Source of the DNA: Trypanosoma brucei
Lineage: Eukaryota
Length of the DNA: 64,000 nucleotides
Assembly: GCA_000002445.1 (NCBI GenBank)
Contig: CH464491.1
Span: 448,001 to 512,000, forward strand
Direction: 5' to 3'
Positions within the stretch are counted from its first letter, which is position 1, and every line of letters starts with the position of its first letter. Both the position numbers and the translations under genes were made by a program. A model generated the notes under the pieces. It was not told where the DNA came from, did not search any database, and was given only the letters and a program-made list of their open reading frames with translations. Shown here piece by piece: positions 40,996 to 49,016 of this stretch.

Positions 40996-43146
40996 TCAGC
41001 AAGGGCCCTTCGCATCTCGGGCCAGCTGCTTGTGCAGTATTTCATAATCCATTCTGTCCTTTGCTGAAACAGATGGCTTGACTTTAGACATGCTGACTTC
41101 GAAGTCCTCCATGGTAACGGAGGGCAGCTGCGCATTCGCCACTGCCTCACCACTGGCGTCTCGTTCCATTTGCTCCAGCATCTCCTCGGTGGCGCCACGG
41201 TAGATATTCTTTAGCGCATGCAAGGAGGCCTCCCGCATAAGTGCGGCCAAGTCGGCACCACTAAACCCCTGGAGGCGCTCATCGCGGGCAATACTCGGGA
41301 GATCCACCGACGCGTCAATTGGATAACGGCGTGCATGTGTTTCTAGAATAGAGGCACGCTGCTCCACGGAGGGAAGTGGAACATACAGCATTTTGTCCAG
41401 GCGCCCAGGACGAAGCATAGCCGGATCAATCATATCTGGACGGTTAGTAGCCCCAATGACATACACACTTTCACGTCCCTCCACACCATCCATTTCTGTC
41501 AGCAACTGGTTTACAACGCGCTCACTGCTTGGGTTTGCCCGATCGGAGCCGCGCCGTGGAGCGAGGGCATCCAGCTCATCAAAGAAGAGAACACAAGGAG
41601 CACTTGCACGACCACGAGCAAAAACCATGCGCACACTCCGCTCACTCTCACCAACAAATTTATTCAGCAACTCAGGTCCTTTAATGGATATAAAATTGGC
41701 GCCTGACTGGTTGGCTATAGCCTTTGCCACCAGTGTTTTGCCACAACCTGGCGGGCCGTAGAGCAGCACACCAACTGGATGATCCAACCCAAACCGTCGG
41801 TGAAGCTTTGGCGACCGAATTGGCTGGAGAATGCTGGTGATAAGCTCTTCGCGAACATCCTCAAGAGCACCAATATCATCCCATGTTACGTTGGGGATCG
41901 TCGTGAAGCCCTCCCTCATTGCGCTTGGCTGCACGCGCTTGACGGCCTCCTTCATATTGTCACGTGTCACGACAAAAGACACGAGTTCCTCGGCGTTGGG
42001 ATCGTCCAGTTTATTCTTTTCCTCCAGTTCGTTGTGCTTCTGCCGGATTGCAAGAATGCATGCCTCTTTGACCAGCAGGTGAAGATCTGCACCAACGTAA
42101 CCGGGTGTCATGTTCGCCAGTTCGAAAAAGTCCACGTCCTCTGCCAAATGAAGCTTCTGACAAATTATTTTTAAGATACTGTGCCGTTCGTCGATGGTGG
42201 GGATGCCAAGAGAGATTTCACGATCGAAACGTCCCGCACGGCGCAAGGCGGTATCAAGTGCCTCTGGACGATTCGTAGCCCCCATTACACAAACAACTTT
42301 GTTATGTTGCCGCCACGCCTGGGCAACCTGATCCATGCATGTCAGAAGTTGTCCGACGATGCGGCTTTCCATACCCCGCTGCGCTTGATCGCGACGACCT
42401 GCAATGGTGTCAACCTCATCAATGAATACAATGCTTGGAGCCGCGCTTATGGCATCTAGAAAAAGGTTACGCAGTTTGGCCTCGCTATCACCGCTGATGC
42501 CAGAGACAATTTCGGGAGCGGACACGAAAAAGAGTGGGACTTGCAGGGACCCTGAAATGGCATGCACAAGCTTCGTTTTCCCGCACCCCGGTGGTCCATG
42601 GAGCAGCACACCGCAGGGCGGATCGGCGCCTAAGCGGCTGAATAAATGGGGAGAGCGGATGGGCAATTCAATTAGTTCTTTAATTATTGGAATTTCTCTT
42701 GCAAGCCCGCCCATGTCATCGAGGGTAATACCCGGGATGACGCCGAGCCTTTCGGGTGTGTCTTCCTCACCTCCATCATCGTCTTGTTTGGTTTCCGCAC
42801 GTTTCCGTTTCCTGGAACCCTCCAATCCGTTATCGTCACCACCATTTCTTCGACTACGTTCTGTGAAGTTGCTCTTTTCCCCGCGATCCCTTTCATGGAT
42901 GCCATTTCCCCGTTGAGAAGAGCCATGGAAATACCGGTCGCTTTGCCGTCTCTTCTGCCTGAGCCGCCGCATCTGGTCAGACATATCCCACAGCGGGAAA
43001 TATTTTCTAACAGTCACCGTAACAGTGACCAGCGGTAAATTAAAAATAAGTAAATAAATGTGATATACGGTAAAGGCATATAACCACAACAAAGAGGTAG
43101 ATGAAAGGCCCTCCATCGCGGCGATGGAGGGGTTCGCCAGACGCAA
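40996..43146 (-). CDS. Type II AAA+ ATPase, NVL/Rix7-like (two AAA domains)
   Basis: D1 motifs: GVLLHGPPGCGKT, APEIVSGISGDSEAKLRNLF, IVFIDEVD, RIVGQLLTCMD. D2 motifs: GVLLYGPPGCGKT, LFFDELDAL. These are very close to NVL as I remember it ([31 protein letters not shown]). The N-terminal region is basic and NLS-like. The first 54 codons look non-coding, so the likely true start is the ATG at 42984 (MSDQMRRLRQKRR). Confidence 0.85.
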   Translation of the reverse strand: MRLANPSIAAMEGLSSTSLLWLYAFTVYHIYLLIFNLPLVTVTVTVRKYFPLWDMSDQMRRLRQKRRQSDRYFHGSSQRGNGIHERDRGEKSNFTERSRRNGGDDNGLEGSRKRKRAETKQDDDGGEEDTPERLGVIPGITLDDMGGLAREIPIIKELIELPIRSPHLFSRLGADPPCGVLLHGPPGCGKTKLVHAISGSLQVPLFFVSAPEIVSGISGDSEAKLRNLFLDAISAAPSIVFIDEVDTIAGRRDQAQRGMESRIVGQLLTCMDQVAQAWRQHNKVVCVMGATNRPEALDTALRRAGRFDREISLGIPTIDERHSILKIICQKLHLAEDVDFFELANMTPGYVGADLHLLVKEACILAIRQKHNELEEKNKLDDPNAEELVSFVVTRDNMKEAVKRVQPSAMREGFTTIPNVTWDDIGALEDVREELITSILQPIRSPKLHRRFGLDHPVGVLLYGPPGCGKTLVAKAIANQSGANFISIKGPELLNKFVGESERSVRMVFARGRASAPCVLFFDELDALAPRRGSDRANPSSERVVNQLLTEMDGVEGRESVYVIGATNRPDMIDPAMLRPGRLDKMLYVPLPSVEQRASILETHARRYPIDASVDLPSIARDERLQGFSGADLAALMREASLHALKNIYRGATEEMLEQMERDASGEAVANAQLPSVTMEDFEVSMSKVKPSVSAKDRMDYEILHKQLARDAKGPC

Positions 43147-44110: not shown

Positions 44111-45424
44111 CTACCGCCACTCCACGTCTTTAAGGCTCTTTCCTTCCATCAGCAAGTCCCACAGTGGCGACATTTCACGCAACCTTTCCACAGTGCGGGC
44201 ACACTCCTCAACCGTAACATCCACCTCTCGCTCAGTAGTGAAGCGACCGATACCAAATCGAATGGAGGTGTGTGCATTCTCAGCATCAATACCGAGTGCA
44301 CGCAAAACATAACTTGGCTCTAGAGAGGCGCTTGTGCATGCACTTCCACTCGAGACCGCTACCTTCTTCATGCCCATTAGTAAACTCTCACCTTCCACAC
44401 AGGCAAAGCTAATGTTAAGGTTTCCGTGAAATCGGCGCTCAACATCACCATTGAGTGTGATGTGTGTTAAGCGCTTCTGCAAACCCTCCCATAATCGCTT
44501 ACTAAGTTGGGCGATGCGCTCTGAATCACGCTTCATCTCTACCTTTGCTAGCTCACACGCTGCACCCAATCCCACTGCAAGTGGTGTGGCTATAGTGCCG
44601 CTACGCACACCACGCTCCTGTCCACCACCACTCACTGGTGATCGCACACGGACGCGCGGACGGCGTCGCATGTAGAGGGCACCGCAGCCCTTCGGTCCGT
44701 ATATTTTGTGCGAGGATACTGACATGAGGTCAATGTTATCCCGATCCACATCAATATCCAACTTTCCCACCGCCTGCGCGGCGTCAGTATGAAAGAGGAC
44801 CTTCTTTTTCCTGCATATCTTCCCGATTTCGCCAATGGGTTGAATCACACCAATTTCATTGTTCACATACATGCAAGAAACGAGCGCTGTTGTGGGACGG
44901 ATAGCTTCCTCAAGTTTCTGTAGGTTCACAATCCCATTTTTTTCAACGGGAAGGTACGTTACCTCGAAACCCTCCATTTCCAAGTAGCGGCAGGAGTCCA
45001 AAACACACTTGTGTTCTGTTTGAAGGGTTATGAGGTGGTTTTTCTTTTCTTTGTTGTAGTTGGCTACACCTTTTATGGCAATATTGTTGGACTCCGTTGC
45101 GCCGCTAGTAAAAAAAACACCCTTGGGACTCGCTCGAATTAAATCTGCCACTTGCGTCCGCGCCTTCTCAACGGCCTCCTCAGCAGTCCAACCATAACTG
45201 TGTGTACGGCTGTGTGGGTTGCCATACATTTCAGTCATGTAAGGCAGCATCTTATCGAGTACCCGTGGATCTAACGGAGTTGTTGACTGCAGATCCAAAT
45301 ATAGCGGTCGTGGATCCCTTTTAAAAGGCCTTCCAGCGGAGCCTCCAACCGACGAGACTCCCTGACTGATGGCTGATGCGGAGCCACAAGCCGCGCAAAG
45401 AAGTACGCGAACACCACTAAACAT
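44111..45424 (-). CDS. NFS1: Cysteine desulfurase (Nfs1/IscS type, PLP-dependent), mitochondrial
   Basis: 437-aa ORF with SSHKIYGPKGCGALY (PLP-Lys), GGGQERGVRSGT, SSGSACTSASLEPSYVLRALG (catalytic Cys loop) and an N-terminal presequence. Confidence 0.93.
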   Translation of the reverse strand: MFSGVRVLLCAACGSASAISQGVSSVGGSAGRPFKRDPRPLYLDLQSTTPLDPRVLDKMLPYMTEMYGNPHSRTHSYGWTAEEAVEKARTQVADLIRASPKGVFFTSGATESNNIAIKGVANYNKEKKNHLITLQTEHKCVLDSCRYLEMEGFEVTYLPVEKNGIVNLQKLEEAIRPTTALVSCMYVNNEIGVIQPIGEIGKICRKKKVLFHTDAAQAVGKLDIDVDRDNIDLMSVSSHKIYGPKGCGALYMRRRPRVRVRSPVSGGGQERGVRSGTIATPLAVGLGAACELAKVEMKRDSERIAQLSKRLWEGLQKRLTHITLNGDVERRFHGNLNISFACVEGESLLMGMKKVAVSSGSACTSASLEPSYVLRALGIDAENAHTSIRFGIGRFTTEREVDVTVEECARTVERLREMSPLWDLLMEGKSLKDVEWR

Positions 45425-45987: not shown

Positions 45988-48654
45988 TCAGTACATTTCC
46001 TCCCCGTGAATGGAACCATCGGCGTTCAAAACACCATCGAAAGCGTCTGATATGCCCATTTCCGATGCAACGTCCCTAATCGCGGCAGCCAACTCCGCCT
46101 GTTGACTCTCCGTGAGAACCGGGGGTGAGTGATGATCTCCCCCACTTCGCTGCGGTCCTCCTTTGGTGAAAAGCTCGTTAAGTGAAGAATACAAAGAGGT
46201 TTCCAAACTCTCAGCCTCACCCGTTGAGGTGGTTTCGGCAGTGCGATGATGCTCTTCATGCGCCCTCCACAAGGCAAGATCAGTGATGCGTAGGAATTGA
46301 CGATAAGTTAGTGATGTGGGGTACGCACGAACCACTTCATTCGGCAGTTTAGCCGTCTGAGGAAGGATACCATAGTGATGAAGCAACTTAAGGACGCCCT
46401 CGCGGCGAATAGGCTGAAGGTTGAGCCTTACATCGTACTCCACTGAACCCAGAGCACCCTGAAGAACCTCTTCCTCAGCTGTAGTAATGATCAACAATCG
46501 CTTCCTTCGAGGCTGAGACACATCCCACTCACTGTGAGGGAACAACCCGGAACTCGACACCGACTTGAACTCGTTAATAGCAGACCTCAATGCATCCGCT
46601 GCACCCGAGTCACCACTGCGAACGTACCGTTCAACATTGTCAACAACTAAACAGTAATCCCCTTTAAAGGCACCGGCGTCACGGAGTGCATCGATGACCT
46701 CCTGGATGTCCCTCGCGGCTCGCCCGCTGAGCTCGCGCCCTGTGAGAAACTTCGTCACGCTAAAGCGAATGCTGCTCACCACATTTCTTGCAAACACAGT
46801 CTTTCCTGAGCCGCTGGAGCCATGAATAACAACTACAGCCGCATTTGTAATTTGGCTGTGCTGAATACTACGCATCAACCGCCGAACTACACCCATCCCG
46901 CGAGATATCGTTCCGTCAAAATCCACAAGCTTATCAACAGCGTTATCCAGTCCCTTACCGTCGCCGGCGAGATCTTGACCACCGTTTACCTGCGCCTTTG
47001 AGTCCCATACATCCCTCAACGCAAGTTGAAAGTCGCTATTGGTAACTTTAAAATGCTCAGTCGCTGCGCCAGAGAGTTCATCCTCAATACCAATATCCCC
47101 GGTGGGGATGCTTGTGTTGAGAGAACTATCGCGGAACCGTAACAATGCGTGACTGACCGCCGCACGAACCGTGCCAGCAACATCGGCACCAGAAAATCCA
47201 CCTGTTCGCTCTGCCAGTATATCCAAGCTGACATCTTCTGCAAGAAAATCCTTATCCCGTAGTTCCCGTGTGTGGATAAAAAACATCTCTCTTCGACCCT
47301 TAACGTCAGGTAGGGGAACCTCAATGACAACTTCAAACCGACCTGGGCGGAGAAGTGCACGGTCAATAGCATGTAACCTGTTCGTCAATCCAATAATAAG
47401 TATATTCCTTGCTTTATTCACGCCGTCCATGATGGTTAGAAATTGGTTAGTTAGTCCATCATACACAGCTTTCGTGGAGCTTTCCTCCCCCAAATCTGCA
47501 CGCCGTTTAAAGAGTGCATCGAGTTCATCCATAATGACAATGTGCAAGCTCTTGCTGTTTGCAGTTTCTTCATCAGCACCAGAAGCATGTCGCGTTCCCC
47601 CGTGCTCATCCTCATCATCATCATCGCCCCACATGTTGTTAGCGTCAAATAGCCTCCGAAGGTTCTTTTCGGAGTCACCAACGTACTTGGAAATAATGTC
47701 AGCCGCGTTGACAATAGTTACCCTCGTCCCTTTACCTTCCAGCTTGGCAATCATACGAGCAATAAGAGTCTTACCGGTTCCCGGCGGCCCATGGAGGAGT
47801 ACTCCACGTACAGGCGGAATATTAAGTGATTCCACCACCCCACGGAGTTGCCGCGTCCTACTCAAGAAAACGCGACGGAAAAGCTCATGTAGTTGCTCAC
47901 TTAATCCTCCAATACCAAGAGAAACCCACTCATCATTCATTGCAGAGTGTCGGACTCTACGGAACATATATTCTAAGGGGTCTTCGGCATCCTCCTCTTC
48001 ATCCTCCTCACCGCCCGAGTGCGATCCATTGCCATACGGCGTGAGGTCCAACTCCACTGCACGGGGGACGGAGGCAAGCGTAACAATTGTAGTCTTGTTA
48101 GAGTTGTCACTCGTTACAGTTTGAAGCAATTTCAGGTTCATCCAAGTGCTCCGTGTGGTCAGCCGTTCCAACCACAGCGGTTTATGCCTCAAACTATCCA
48201 TGGGATTAAGAAGGGTACACGACAAGATCTGCCGCGGGAACAGACTAGAGGGCCTCACATGAAGACACGGCATGGAAATTAAATCAAGATCCTCCTCACC
48301 TCCATGATGTGGTATTGGTGTGTGTTCCTCCAGAACTATGCTTAAGTTCCCCAGCTGTGGGAAACCGCGCCCCCGAACGGTGAGTTGTACCGGATGATAT
48401 GAATTCAAGTCAGAGAAGCACGAAATCGTCTGGCGACCCCTTTCCGTTAGCACAGGCCTAGTGCAGCCGGTAATCCACAATATCTCTAATCTTTGATAAT
48501 TGCTATATTTTGCAGGACCGCCGGGATGATATGAAGCCGCACCCAGATTAACGCTGTAGAGACACGCCACGCACGCGCAAAGAAGAAACAGTGATGAAAG
48601 CGGATTTAGCGTGCGAAACGCTTGCCTTTTGCTAACTGTGGTCTTGACTATCAT
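45988..48654 (-). CDS. NSF-like two-domain AAA+ ATPase with hydrophobic N-terminal segment
   Basis: 888-aa ORF. D1 motifs: GVLLHGPPGTGKTLIARMIAK, SKYVGDSEKNLRRLF, IVIMDELDAL, IIGLTNRLHAIDRALLRPGRFEVVIEVPLPDVKGR (compare NSF [35 protein letters not shown]). D2 has GSSGSGKT and a degenerate Walker B (VVDNVE). The N-terminus carries LSSLFLLCACVACLYSV. Confidence 0.8.
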   Translation of the reverse strand: MIVKTTVSKRQAFRTLNPLSSLFLLCACVACLYSVNLGAASYHPGGPAKYSNYQRLEILWITGCTRPVLTERGRQTISCFSDLNSYHPVQLTVRGRGFPQLGNLSIVLEEHTPIPHHGGEEDLDLISMPCLHVRPSSLFPRQILSCTLLNPMDSLRHKPLWLERLTTRSTWMNLKLLQTVTSDNSNKTTIVTLASVPRAVELDLTPYGNGSHSGGEEDEEEDAEDPLEYMFRRVRHSAMNDEWVSLGIGGLSEQLHELFRRVFLSRTRQLRGVVESLNIPPVRGVLLHGPPGTGKTLIARMIAKLEGKGTRVTIVNAADIISKYVGDSEKNLRRLFDANNMWGDDDDEDEHGGTRHASGADEETANSKSLHIVIMDELDALFKRRADLGEESSTKAVYDGLTNQFLTIMDGVNKARNILIIGLTNRLHAIDRALLRPGRFEVVIEVPLPDVKGRREMFFIHTRELRDKDFLAEDVSLDILAERTGGFSGADVAGTVRAAVSHALLRFRDSSLNTSIPTGDIGIEDELSGAATEHFKVTNSDFQLALRDVWDSKAQVNGGQDLAGDGKGLDNAVDKLVDFDGTISRGMGVVRRLMRSIQHSQITNAAVVVIHGSSGSGKTVFARNVVSSIRFSVTKFLTGRELSGRAARDIQEVIDALRDAGAFKGDYCLVVDNVERYVRSGDSGAADALRSAINEFKSVSSSGLFPHSEWDVSQPRRKRLLIITTAEEEVLQGALGSVEYDVRLNLQPIRREGVLKLLHHYGILPQTAKLPNEVVRAYPTSLTYRQFLRITDLALWRAHEEHHRTAETTSTGEAESLETSLYSSLNELFTKGGPQRSGGDHHSPPVLTESQQAELAAAIRDVASEMGISDAFDGVLNADGSIHGEEMY

Positions 48655-49016
48655 CCTACCAACAATCCCGCCCCTTTGTTGAACTCTAGGTGGGTTGGAG
48701 TACGAAGGAAAGGGAGGGGGAAAAACAATACCTCAGCGCAAGCGGCAAAGGATCAAAGAACAACATGTGCGTGCGTATTCACATAAATTTTCCTAACCAA
48801 GTGCTATCACAAGATGTGAGCTCGTGAAAGACCCAATATCAGAGCGCGATCCCGAGCAAAGTATTCTCATTTTCACCCCCGAATAAGATTTGAAAAAAAA
48901 AATGTCAAAAATAACGATAGTGGAAATTGAAAGAAATGACAAAGCCTGCGTCACAGCATAAAAAATAATAATGATTATGATGATAACGATCATATTCCAA
49001 GTCGAAACCAATCATG

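Follow-up and report, generated by a model that had tools for sequence, protein, structure and literature searches.

Extraction of misfolded proteins from the endoplasmic reticulum (ER) is credited to cytosolic Cdc48, and in the prevailing view no ATP-driven unfoldase of the Cdc48, NSF or Clp type works in the ER lumen, such luminal motors being very rare. The known luminal AAA+ proteins are the torsins of the metazoan ER and nuclear envelope. These are single-ring ATPases related to Clp/Hsp100 that lack both the aromatic pore loops used for substrate threading and an arginine finger, and that need the activators LAP1/LULL1. Precedents for a two-ring, pore-loop-competent AAA+ unfoldase that is routed by a signal peptide to a site topologically outside the cytosol are Plasmodium HSP101 of the PTEX translocon and the symbiont Cdc48 of complex plastids. 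Here, we describe a kinetoplastid-conserved NSF paralogue from Trypanosoma brucei that is probably ER luminal, or luminally oriented and membrane tethered, and that, judging from its sequence, would act as a protein-remodelling hexamer and not as a SNARE-disassembly enzyme.

The DNA analyzed (the window) is a stretch of 64,000 nucleotides from T. brucei contig CH464491.1. The ORF under study begins with ATG, and its end coordinate includes the TGA stop. Its product matches XP_828257.1 / Q386Y6 of T. brucei TREU927, named "vesicular-fusion protein SEC18, putative" in the databases, at 888 of 888 positions. We infer that the gene is Tb927.11.1680, because the product name is shared and the ORF adjoins the cysteine desulfurase gene Tb927.11.1670. 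Homologues across trypanosomatids match with E values between 1e-233 and 1e-106, and because the family is conserved to this extent, the features noted at first reading and the NSF-type core are not due to chance. Databases list the family as SEC18 or vesicle-fusing ATPase, with GO terms assigned by transfer. A literature search for the protein as an NSF-like, vesicular-fusion ATPase-like or torsin-like trypanosome protein found no paper describing it.

Table 1. Features of the ORF and its upstream region, in window coordinates, from the upstream end of the gene
Feature	Position	Strand	Residues	Remarks
Whole ORF	45988..48654	-	888 aa	Equals XP_828257.1 / Q386Y6
Polypyrimidine tract, then first AG (48687-48686), the predicted trans-splice acceptor	48686..48728	-		Read from sequence
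Signal peptide or type II signal anchor (predicted)	48532..48654	-	1-41	Hydrophobic in 33/33 homologues; flank charge
IPT/TIG-like beta-sandwich N-domain	48046..48492	-	about 55-203	Cysteines C64, C79, C130, C146
Disordered acidic linker, IPT domain to D1	47974..48045	-	about 204-227	...GGEEDEEEDAEDP; pLDDT, alignment
D1, NSF-type AAA domain and lid	47110..47922	-	about 245-515	Pfam AAA E 2.5e-38 and AAA_lid_3
Acidic low-complexity insertion	47557..47640	-	339-366	Loop before Walker B strand
D2, degenerate NSF-type AAA domain	46225..46932	-	about 575-810	D2-only PDB search, alignment, Foldseek
Helical extension at the C terminus, with a disordered acidic tail	45991..46224	-	811-888	

Two tandem AAA modules make up the core: Pfam AAA matches in two stretches, accompanied by AAA_lid_3, and the full-length model contains two alpha/beta modules. 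Alignment to NSF runs in a single stretch across D1 and D2 (query 234-678, NSF 207-612). D1 scores 208 bits against Sec18 and 200 bits against NSF, each in one stretch, compared with about 128 bits per domain against VAT/Cdc48. When D2 alone was searched against the PDB, the sole matches were the D2 domains of Sec18/NSF (E 6e-7 and 2.5e-3). The top 50 Foldseek matches of the full model were all Sec18/NSF, with a best E of 2e-32 and TM scores of 0.62-0.70 to NSF D1D2 chains. The D2-only search and the per-domain bit scores already set NSF apart from Cdc48 and Pex1/6, and the AAA core is NSF-derived.

The motifs of D1 are those of an active motor. Walker A (GPPGTGKT, residues 289-296), the pore loop K323-Y-V-G326, Walker B (D376/E377), sensor-1 (N425) and the Arg fingers (R436/R439) are all present, and the catalytic and pore-loop motifs are invariant or nearly so among 24 homologues. 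D2 retains its P-loop (GSSGSGKT, residues 612-619), although the most distant clade in the same alignment no longer has the P-loop Lys. It is without a catalytic Glu, since its Walker B reads VVDN (D671, N672). The sequence-only reading had called D1 and D2 NSF-type, with a degenerate Walker B in D2, and PDB searches, Foldseek and the motif alignment all agree with it.

The same reading placed an acidic insertion just ahead of IVIMDELD. That position is correct, with NMWGDDDDEDEHGGTRHASGADEETANS directly preceding LHIVIMDELD, but the insertion is not a defining feature of the protein. Across the family, the loop before Walker B ranges from 11 to 62 aa, the most distant clade having about 15 aa, and only in Trypanosoma is it acidic; residues 340-367 have pLDDT values below 50. 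Distant homologues have AAxxDAQRNGAAAGLHVIIFDE at this position, which we take to be a near match to the NSF loop. The insertion is a disordered, lineage-variable loop expansion with no conserved role. The C terminus varies as well: T. brucei ends in ...GEEMY and orthologues in ...[DE]E[LVI]x-W, the T. brucei TGA stop sitting where orthologues have the terminal Trp codon. No KDEL-type retrieval signal was found at the T. brucei C terminus (GEEMY) or in the [DE]E[LV]xW ends of most kinetoplastids; the endings -LDL and -LFL of some distant homologues are no more than suggestive of a retrieval signal. A C-terminal docking motif of the HbYX type fits GDEVYW of some Trypanosoma but fails on ELLW of Leishmaniinae, and we rejected it as a family feature.

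The most informative part of the protein is the region ahead of the motor, where the N-domain of NSF is absent and an IPT/TIG-like domain with four cysteines stands in its place. This replacement had been missed when the architecture was first read from the sequence. All four cysteines are invariant in the 24-homologue alignment, and the T. cruzi clade has an extra Cys pair in this domain, both members of which were gained together. The fold is enlarged by two short additional helices and by an extended hairpin at its C-terminal end, and the Pfam TIG model (PF01833) gave no match to the domain at E ≤ 0.01. Among the architectures looked at, fusion of an IPT domain to an AAA+ module occurs only in this family. 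The linker that follows has pLDDT below 50 for residues 209-227 and ends in a conserved PLE(x)(L/M)(F/Y) motif. NF-kB, EBF and Sec5 are examples of cytosolic or nuclear proteins that also have IPT/TIG domains.

The protein opens with a basic stretch, after which comes a hydrophobic segment of 17 residues, as had been noted at first reading. The n-region carries a charge of +4 (K4, K9, R10, R14), and the h-region LSSLFLLCACVACLYSV (residues 19-35, nt 48550-48600) stands alone in hydrophobicity, no other segment of the protein reaching 1.8 in a 19-residue Kyte-Doolittle window. Conservation of this N terminus among orthologues had been proposed as a check, and all 33 homologues proved to have a hydrophobic N terminus once two truncated gene models were extended, the missing stretch being found in-frame upstream of both. 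The C-minus-N flank charge difference is negative in 29 of the 33 and positive in none (-2 in T. brucei), values that favor a predicted N-in orientation. In many homologues the h-region is only 11-15 aa long, lies at the extreme N terminus and is followed by small-residue motifs, an arrangement more like that of a cleavable signal peptide than of a transmembrane helix; the c-region of the T. brucei protein contains the small-residue sequence NLGAAS, and orthologue c-regions are AxA-like. TriTrypDB fields for Tb927.11.1680 give SignalP as N/A and one TMHMM transmembrane domain (Table S3, bioRxiv 10.64898/2026.04.03.716285). Because there is no SignalP call and one transmembrane domain, the protein may be membrane tethered and not soluble.

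Published proteomics places Tb927.11.1680 in the ER by hyperLOPIT in both life stages, with a reticulated TrypTag pattern (Table S3, bioRxiv 10.64898/2026.04.03.716285). In procyclics it is significantly enriched with both BiP-TurboID (log2 6.40) and BiPN-TurboID (log2 6.30), and in bloodstream forms BiP-TurboID enrichment is log2 2.9-3.0, which is not significant (bioRxiv 10.64898/2026.04.03.716285). In TrypTag, the label "Cytoplasm[reticulated]" is given to mitochondrial patterns also, and the BiP-TurboID dataset includes obvious cytosolic contaminants such as EF1-alpha. The main text of the preprint leaves the protein uncommented, and the name "Sec18" appears only in a figure legend (bioRxiv 10.64898/2026.04.03.716285). 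In principle, even a protein with its bulk in the cytosol might be biotinylated through a short luminal N terminus that carries K4 and K9. The AAA sequence contains one Cys in 644 aa, compared with 2.09% Cys in 20 neighboring ORFs (binomial P 1.8e-5). Taken with the invariant cysteines and the paired Cys gains of the IPT domain, this depletion points to an oxidizing compartment as the probable residence of the protein. N-glycosylation sequons, which the T. brucei protein has at N103, N186 and N209, are no evidence either way, because no sequon column is common to more than four of the 24 homologues. The sequence-only reading had raised a membrane-anchored or secretory-pathway NSF paralogue; the conserved N termini, the N-in charges, the hyperLOPIT assignment and the luminal TurboID label now speak for it.

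Could the hydrophobic stretch be 5′ UTR, with translation starting at an internal Met? This had been offered as the alternative to a secretory NSF paralogue, and we regard such an annotation artefact as scarcely credible. The first Met after the initial one is M128, which falls within the conserved IPT domain, and because a start there would delete invariant residues (E57, G63, C64, C79, G95 and L108), we rejected it. The hydrophobic N terminus shared by every homologue, including those with short models, also stands against it. Ahead of the first ATG come a polypyrimidine tract and its first AG, the predicted acceptor, which is 32 nt away with no other ATG between; this layout fits use of the first ATG. 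A Logan contig with a 99% homologue, examined for a spliced-leader junction, is genomic DNA and stays collinear with the window in the region preceding the ATG. The hydrophobic N terminus is genuine coding sequence. Nor is the current annotation, a SEC18/NSF orthologue disassembling SNARE complexes in the cytosol, easily sustained. The NSF-type D1-D2 core, the database names and the transferred GO terms favor it, but the SNAP-binding N-domain has given way to an IPT fold, a secretion signal is conserved, and the ER assignment with luminal TurboID label is neither cytosolic nor Golgi. Moreover, T. brucei has a separate NSF orthologue, Tb927.1.1560, RNAi of which causes a severe growth phenotype (PMC2443814). 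We hold the annotated function to be highly improbable. The GO terms that the family carries in TriTryp genomes (SNARE disassembly, Golgi transport) are very likely wrong.

The remaining alternatives concern the compartment and the side of the membrane. A mitochondrial AAA+ protein of the inner membrane or intermembrane space, its N terminus serving as a bipartite presequence with a basic stretch before a hydrophobic sorting signal, would account for the long, basic n-regions of T. brucei and T. vivax, for the name "putative mitochondrial" of the Leptomonas pyrrhocoris orthologue, and for a reticulated TrypTag label. The n-regions of most orthologues, however, span only 2-10 residues without an amphipathic presequence, and hyperLOPIT in both life stages, like the luminal ER TurboID label, argues for the ER, so that we judge a mitochondrial site very unlikely. 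An ER-anchored ATPase facing the cytosol is unlikely but deserves more weight. In that case an N-out reverse signal anchor, as in Msp1/ATAD1, would leave the IPT domain and both rings to remodel proteins at the cytosolic surface of the ER, where ATP is plentiful. One transmembrane domain without a SignalP call suits such an anchor, cytosolic IPT/TIG domains exist, and the hyperLOPIT and TrypTag data fit it equally well; even the BiP-TurboID label might be explained if a luminal stub of ~18 residues with two lysines were within reach. Against a cytosolic orientation stand the flank charges (N-positive in 29/33, C-positive in none), the many h-regions resembling cleavable signal peptides, the cysteine pattern indicative of an oxidizing compartment, and the strength of the luminal TurboID enrichment (log2 6.4).

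We therefore return to the luminal NSF-derived motor. Because a conserved secretion signal is combined with a disulfide-type IPT domain that replaces the SNAP-binding domain, the bulk of the protein is probably inside the ER. The signal peptide or type II anchor would insert N-in, and the rest of the chain would be translocated into the lumen, a step predicted from the sequence and supported by published proteomics. There, the four invariant cysteines would form two disulfides that stabilize the IPT/TIG-like domain, which may serve as a substrate- or adaptor-recognition module in the place of the SNAP-binding N-domain. By homology with NSF and from its motifs, D2 would be an ATP-bound, nonhydrolyzing ring that holds the hexamer together. 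D1, given its motifs, would grip a polypeptide by its Tyr-Val-Gly loops and pull, the targets of this unfolding or disassembly being proteins or complexes of the lumen. In its full form, this describes a kinetoplastid hexameric unfoldase or segregase of the ER lumen, pore-loop competent, that recognizes its clients by means of a disulfide-bonded IPT domain and, at the expense of luminal ATP, separates or unfolds proteins or complexes of the lumen; we advance it tentatively, as a proposal that may well not hold. Possible jobs for such an enzyme are the clearance of aggregates, the delivery of misfolded GPI-anchored or surface-coat proteins to retrotranslocation, and the recycling of luminal cargo-receptor complexes. 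Surface coat protein is produced by T. brucei in very large quantity. According to the preprint, the organism is without a canonical unfolded protein response (bioRxiv 10.64898/2026.04.03.716285).

If the luminal reading is true, mechanical protein remodelling in the ER lumen exists in at least one eukaryotic lineage, and the question of luminal remodelling becomes directly testable in a genetically tractable parasite. A luminal unfoldase would be, as far as is known, the first classical-clade AAA+ translocase shown at the luminal side of the ER. As a kinetoplastid-specific ATPase that may matter for proteostasis in the secretory pathway, it is a potential drug target. The analysis also supplies an explanation for a BiP-TurboID hit that had passed without comment, and it marks the SEC18/NSF name of Tb927.11.1680 as an annotation needing correction.

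Several described systems come close. The N-domain is comparable to the IPT/TIG domains of Met, RON and plexin ectodomains (Pfam PF01833, an E-set Ig-like fold); it differs in being unmatched by the Pfam TIG model at E ≤ 0.01, in carrying the extra helices and hairpin, and in its fusion to an AAA+ motor. Tb927.11.1680 resembles torsins in having an N-terminal signal into the secretory pathway and, as proposed, in residing in the ER lumen and using luminal ATP. In contrast to torsins, it belongs to the classical clade, with two rings, a YVG pore loop and no motor motif missing, and the Pfam Torsin model matches it over the P-loop only, where the score of 21.7 bits stays below the cutoff of 27, which leaves it outside the torsin family. 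HSP101 and the symbiont Cdc48 differ from it in belonging to the ClpB/Hsp100 and Cdc48 families and to other lineages, in working in the parasitophorous vacuole or periplastid space, and in having no IPT domain. The closest relative is NSF/Sec18, which is the best PDB match by sequence and by structure for D1, D2 and the whole core, and which shares the D1-D2 arrangement, the active-type D1 motifs (Walker A/B, YVG, Arg fingers) and a D2 without catalytic Glu. The P-loop of NSF has a Cys (GPPGCGKT) where D1 of Tb927.11.1680 has Thr (GPPGTGKT). Unlike NSF, Tb927.11.1680 has an N-terminal secretion signal and an ER rather than cytosolic location, a four-Cys IPT/TIG-like domain instead of the SNAP-binding double-psi-barrel/alpha-beta-roll N-domain, and, added at the C terminus, a helical extension whose acidic-aromatic tail is conserved. 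Tb927.11.1680 is not the NSF orthologue but a second NSF-derived two-ring AAA+ ATPase of T. brucei.

The NSF-like ATPase ORF, which opens with an ATG, lies in a one-directional gene array of the kind typical of kinetoplastids; every large ORF of the window is on the minus strand. Its product is identical at 888/888 residues to T. brucei brucei TREU927 XP_828257.1 (EAN79145.1; UniProt Q386Y6), named "vesicular-fusion protein SEC18, putative," and 99% identical to its T. b. gambiense counterpart. Because the downstream neighbor is an Aminotran_5 cysteine desulfurase, as is Tb927.11.1670 (so named in a preprint), and because Tb927.11.1680 carries the identical product name, we strongly infer that the ORF is Tb927.11.1680. 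The Ser-rich ORF antisense to it is a mechanical ORF, unsupported as a gene. The ORF immediately upstream encodes several hydrophobic segments and a Lys-rich C terminus (…SPKKRKNK), and had no Pfam match at E ≤ 1e-5; ORFs of 177 to 199 aa occupy the equivalent position in T. grayi, T. vivax, and the environmental kinetoplastid-like contig L003.

Features at the NSF-like ATPase locus (window coordinates)
Feature	Position	Strand	Remark
Double-AAA protein, 716 aa, Vps4_C-like end	40996-43146	-	gene-order trio
Cysteine desulfurase (Aminotran_5)	44111-45424	-	gene-order trio
NSF-like ATPase, 888 aa	45988-48654	-	gene-order trio
TGA stop of the ATPase ORF	45988-45990	-	
Codons of the last residues, …GEEMY	45991-46005	-	
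Ser-rich ORF, 317 aa	47171-48124	+	antisense within the ATPase gene
First AG upstream of the ATG	48687-48686	-	32 nt before the ATG
Upstream neighbor ORF, 188 aa	49017-49583	-	

The assignment of both AAA rings, D1 and D2, to the NSF type, made in the sequence-only reading together with that of a degenerate D2 Walker B, was borne out. In a PDB sequence search, NSF and Sec18 spanned both rings in one stretch (query 234–678 to NSF 207–612); Cdc48/VAT matched domain by domain only, and their whole-protein scores are higher because two domains are summed. D1 alone aligned in a single stretch to Sec18 (208 bits) and NSF (200 bits), against ∼128 bits for the best single domain of VAT, and D2 alone (residues 561–801) matched only Sec18 D2 (E 6e-7) and NSF D2 (E 2.5e-3) in the PDB. 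When the AlphaFold2 model of the full-length ATPase (mean pLDDT 71.8) was compared with the PDB using Foldseek, the best 50 matches were all Sec18 or NSF (best E 2e-32; TM up to 0.70, for D1D2-only chains; identity 28–30%). The D1 motor is complete: Walker A (G289/G292/G294/K295/T296), the pore loop (K323-Y-V-G326), Walker B (D376/E377), sensor-1 N425, and R436/R439 are invariant or nearly so among 24 homologues. In D2, Walker B reads VVDN in T. brucei and lacks the catalytic Glu, which is never present in the 24 homologues; the P-loop is retained in trypanosomatids. The D2 Walker A Lys (residues 612–619 of the window protein) is replaced in the most distant clade (homologues P0028–P0032 and P0042–P0048; GSGTS, GSGTT, GAGLT, NSGRS), where D2 may have lost nucleotide binding, beyond the degeneration of NSF D2. 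The literature gives T. brucei NSF as a separate gene, Tb927.1.1560, with a severe growth phenotype on RNAi (PMC2443814), which makes the gene studied here a second NSF paralogue that has diverged.

The ORF begins, as had been described, with a basic stretch (K4, K9, R10, R14) followed by a 17-residue hydrophobic segment (LSSLFLLCACVACLYSV, residues 19–35). In a set of 33 homologues, strong hydrophobicity is confined to the N-terminal segment, and deposited gene models include it in all but those of T. grayi and T. vivax (31/33). These two models begin at an internal ATG, and in-frame upstream Met codons add MSYTLWRLCIATFALLILQFPLP in T. grayi and MNWRRSLHPFGKQQATLPHFLIVLVLFAVG in T. vivax (L005:1432–1500 and L006:1411–1500, respectively). 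Both models appear to be N-terminally truncated; with them extended, the hydrophobic N terminus is therefore present in 33/33 homologues, the conservation that the sequence-only reading had proposed to look for. The signal carries an N-in charge bias: flank charge, C minus N, was negative in 29 of the 33, zero in four, and positive in none, so that by the positive-inside rule N-in insertion is predicted, with the remaining chain translocated. Several homologues have a short h-region (11–15 aa) at the extreme N terminus followed by small residues (…AAVSVRTSP, …ALASAVSLSPP, …VVAAVSADMQ), the pattern that cleavable signal peptides show; in T. brucei and T. vivax the n-region is longer, and the segment may stay uncleaved as an anchor. 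The alternative of an internal start, with the hydrophobic part belonging to the 5′ UTR, is excluded, since no further Met occurs before M128 and starting there would delete the invariant residues E57, G63, C64, C79, G95, and L108. Upstream of the ATG there is a ∼40-nt polypyrimidine tract, and between its first AG and the start codon lies no other ATG, the arrangement expected for a trans-splice acceptor, which is predicted here.

Residues ∼55 to 203 stand in place of the NSF N-domain. Modeled from a 20-sequence alignment (pLDDT 83.6, pTM 0.76), they form a beta-sandwich with two short helices, likened to the IPT/TIG domains of EBF and CAMTA; a Pfam scan did not recognize the domain. Its profile, searched against 1.84 billion representative proteins, returned only 44 matches at E ≤ 1e-3. 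Some 20 of these match in one stretch and belong to proteins roughly 770 to 1240 aa long; Pfam found AAA domains in all six unfamiliar ones scanned. Most others match in several stretches and are larger proteins; P0129, the one scanned, has eight PF01833 TIG stretches (E 1e-84). Here, fusion of this N-domain to an AAA+ motor was seen only in this small family. Four cysteines of the IPT-type domain (C64, C79, C130, and C146), overlooked along with it in the sequence-only reading, are invariant in 24 sequences and lie on neighboring strands in the model. Proteins P0005, P0007, P0008, and P0009 (T. rangeli, T. cruzi, T. conorhini) share a loop with two extra cysteines (RCxEGxxEC). The two seem to have arisen together in the T. 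cruzi clade, which would fit a third disulfide. The AAA part has one cysteine in 644 aa (0.16%), compared with 2.09% pooled over 20 other window ORFs (binomial P 1.8e-5) and 1.26% in the neighboring cytosolic-type double-AAA protein; orthologues have 0 to 5 in this region. Paired structural cysteines with scarce free ones are the usual signature of folding in an oxidizing compartment, so the pattern suggests such folding here.

The acidic insertion reported just upstream of the D1 Walker B is likewise present (NMWGDDDDEDEHGGTRHASGADEETANS, residues 339–366, directly before LHIVIMDELD), in the loop from the helix after the pore loop to the Walker B strand. Across the family this loop spans 11 to 62 aa; it is acidic in Trypanosoma only, reaches its greatest length in T. 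theileri, T. melophagium, and T. vivax, and is disordered in the model (pLDDT < 50, residues 340–367). Members of the most distant clade have a loop of ∼15 aa, reading AAxxDAQRNGAAAGLHVIIFDE, a near match to the NSF loop. We prefer to read the insertion as low-complexity sequence that expanded in particular lineages rather than as a hallmark of function.

Named orthologues come from Trypanosoma, Leishmania, Leptomonas, Novymonas, Porcisia, and Angomonas. More distant members (28–34% identity), from environmental or other assemblies, lie on contigs with tightly packed, same-strand, intron-free genes that partly keep the window gene order, features that point to other kinetoplastids as their probable source. 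The full trio order recurs in L003; T. grayi and T. vivax keep the ATPase and desulfurase genes adjacent and in that order; and on contig L002 one gene separates the NSF-like gene from the double-AAA gene. Trypanosomatid members end in [DE]E[LV]xW. The T. brucei TGA falls exactly at the terminal Trp codon position of nearly all orthologues (…GDEVYW, …DELLW, …EEVLW; T. vivax ends …SEETYL), and it looks as though a TGG-to-TGA change in the T. brucei lineage cost the conserved acidic-aromatic tail its last residue. Distant homologues end in -LDL (P0030, P0032, P0042, P0046) or -LFL (P0028, P0029). The -LDL ends resemble the xxDL ER-retrieval signals of trypanosome BiP (MDDL) and PDI (KQDL), and the differing C termini may reflect differing retention strategies by lineage.

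Published data support ER residence of Tb927.11.1680 and its being within reach of a luminal biotin ligase. HyperLOPIT assigns it to "endoplasmic reticulum" in bloodstream and procyclic forms, TrypTag gives "cytoplasm[reticulated]" for both tags, TM is 1, and there is no SignalP call (all in Table S3, bioRxiv 10.64898/2026.04.03.716285). In that study, luminal baits in procyclics enriched it significantly (log2 6.40 with BiP-TurboID, 6.30 with BiPN-TurboID); enrichment in bloodstream forms (log2 2.9–3.0) was nonsignificant, and the BiP-TurboID dataset contains cytosolic contaminants. Its main text mentions the protein once, undiscussed, as "Sec18" in a figure legend.

The conserved N-terminal signal, ER hyperLOPIT, and luminal TurboID labeling support the secretory-pathway NSF paralogue that had been entertained from sequence. 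The bulk of the ATPase would be ER-luminal, either cleaved or type II-anchored. D2 would keep the hexamer together, as in NSF, and D1 would thread and unfold or disassemble luminal clients that the IPT domain, or a partner docking on it, selects; the acidic-aromatic tail may bind a cofactor. We consider the whole package, from luminal bulk and D2-held hexamer to D1 threading motor and IPT-selected clients, reasonably probable. ER assignment by itself leaves topology unfixed, and the main rival, an ER anchor with the ATPase facing the cytosol, strikes us as rather unlikely. What probability remains is shared among a mitochondrial destination, the SEC18 annotation as it stands, translation from an internal Met, and unconsidered alternatives. 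The SEC18/SNARE-disassembly annotation should be treated as wrong.

The gene is already known and annotated; our literature search found no paper recognizing that Tb927.11.1680 derives from NSF, belongs to the secretory pathway, and carries an IPT domain. To our knowledge, the only other luminal AAA+ proteins are the torsins, which are not threading motors. The signal-bearing AAA+ unfoldases that we know of, Plasmodium HSP101 and plastid Cdc48, differ from the window ATPase in both family and compartment.
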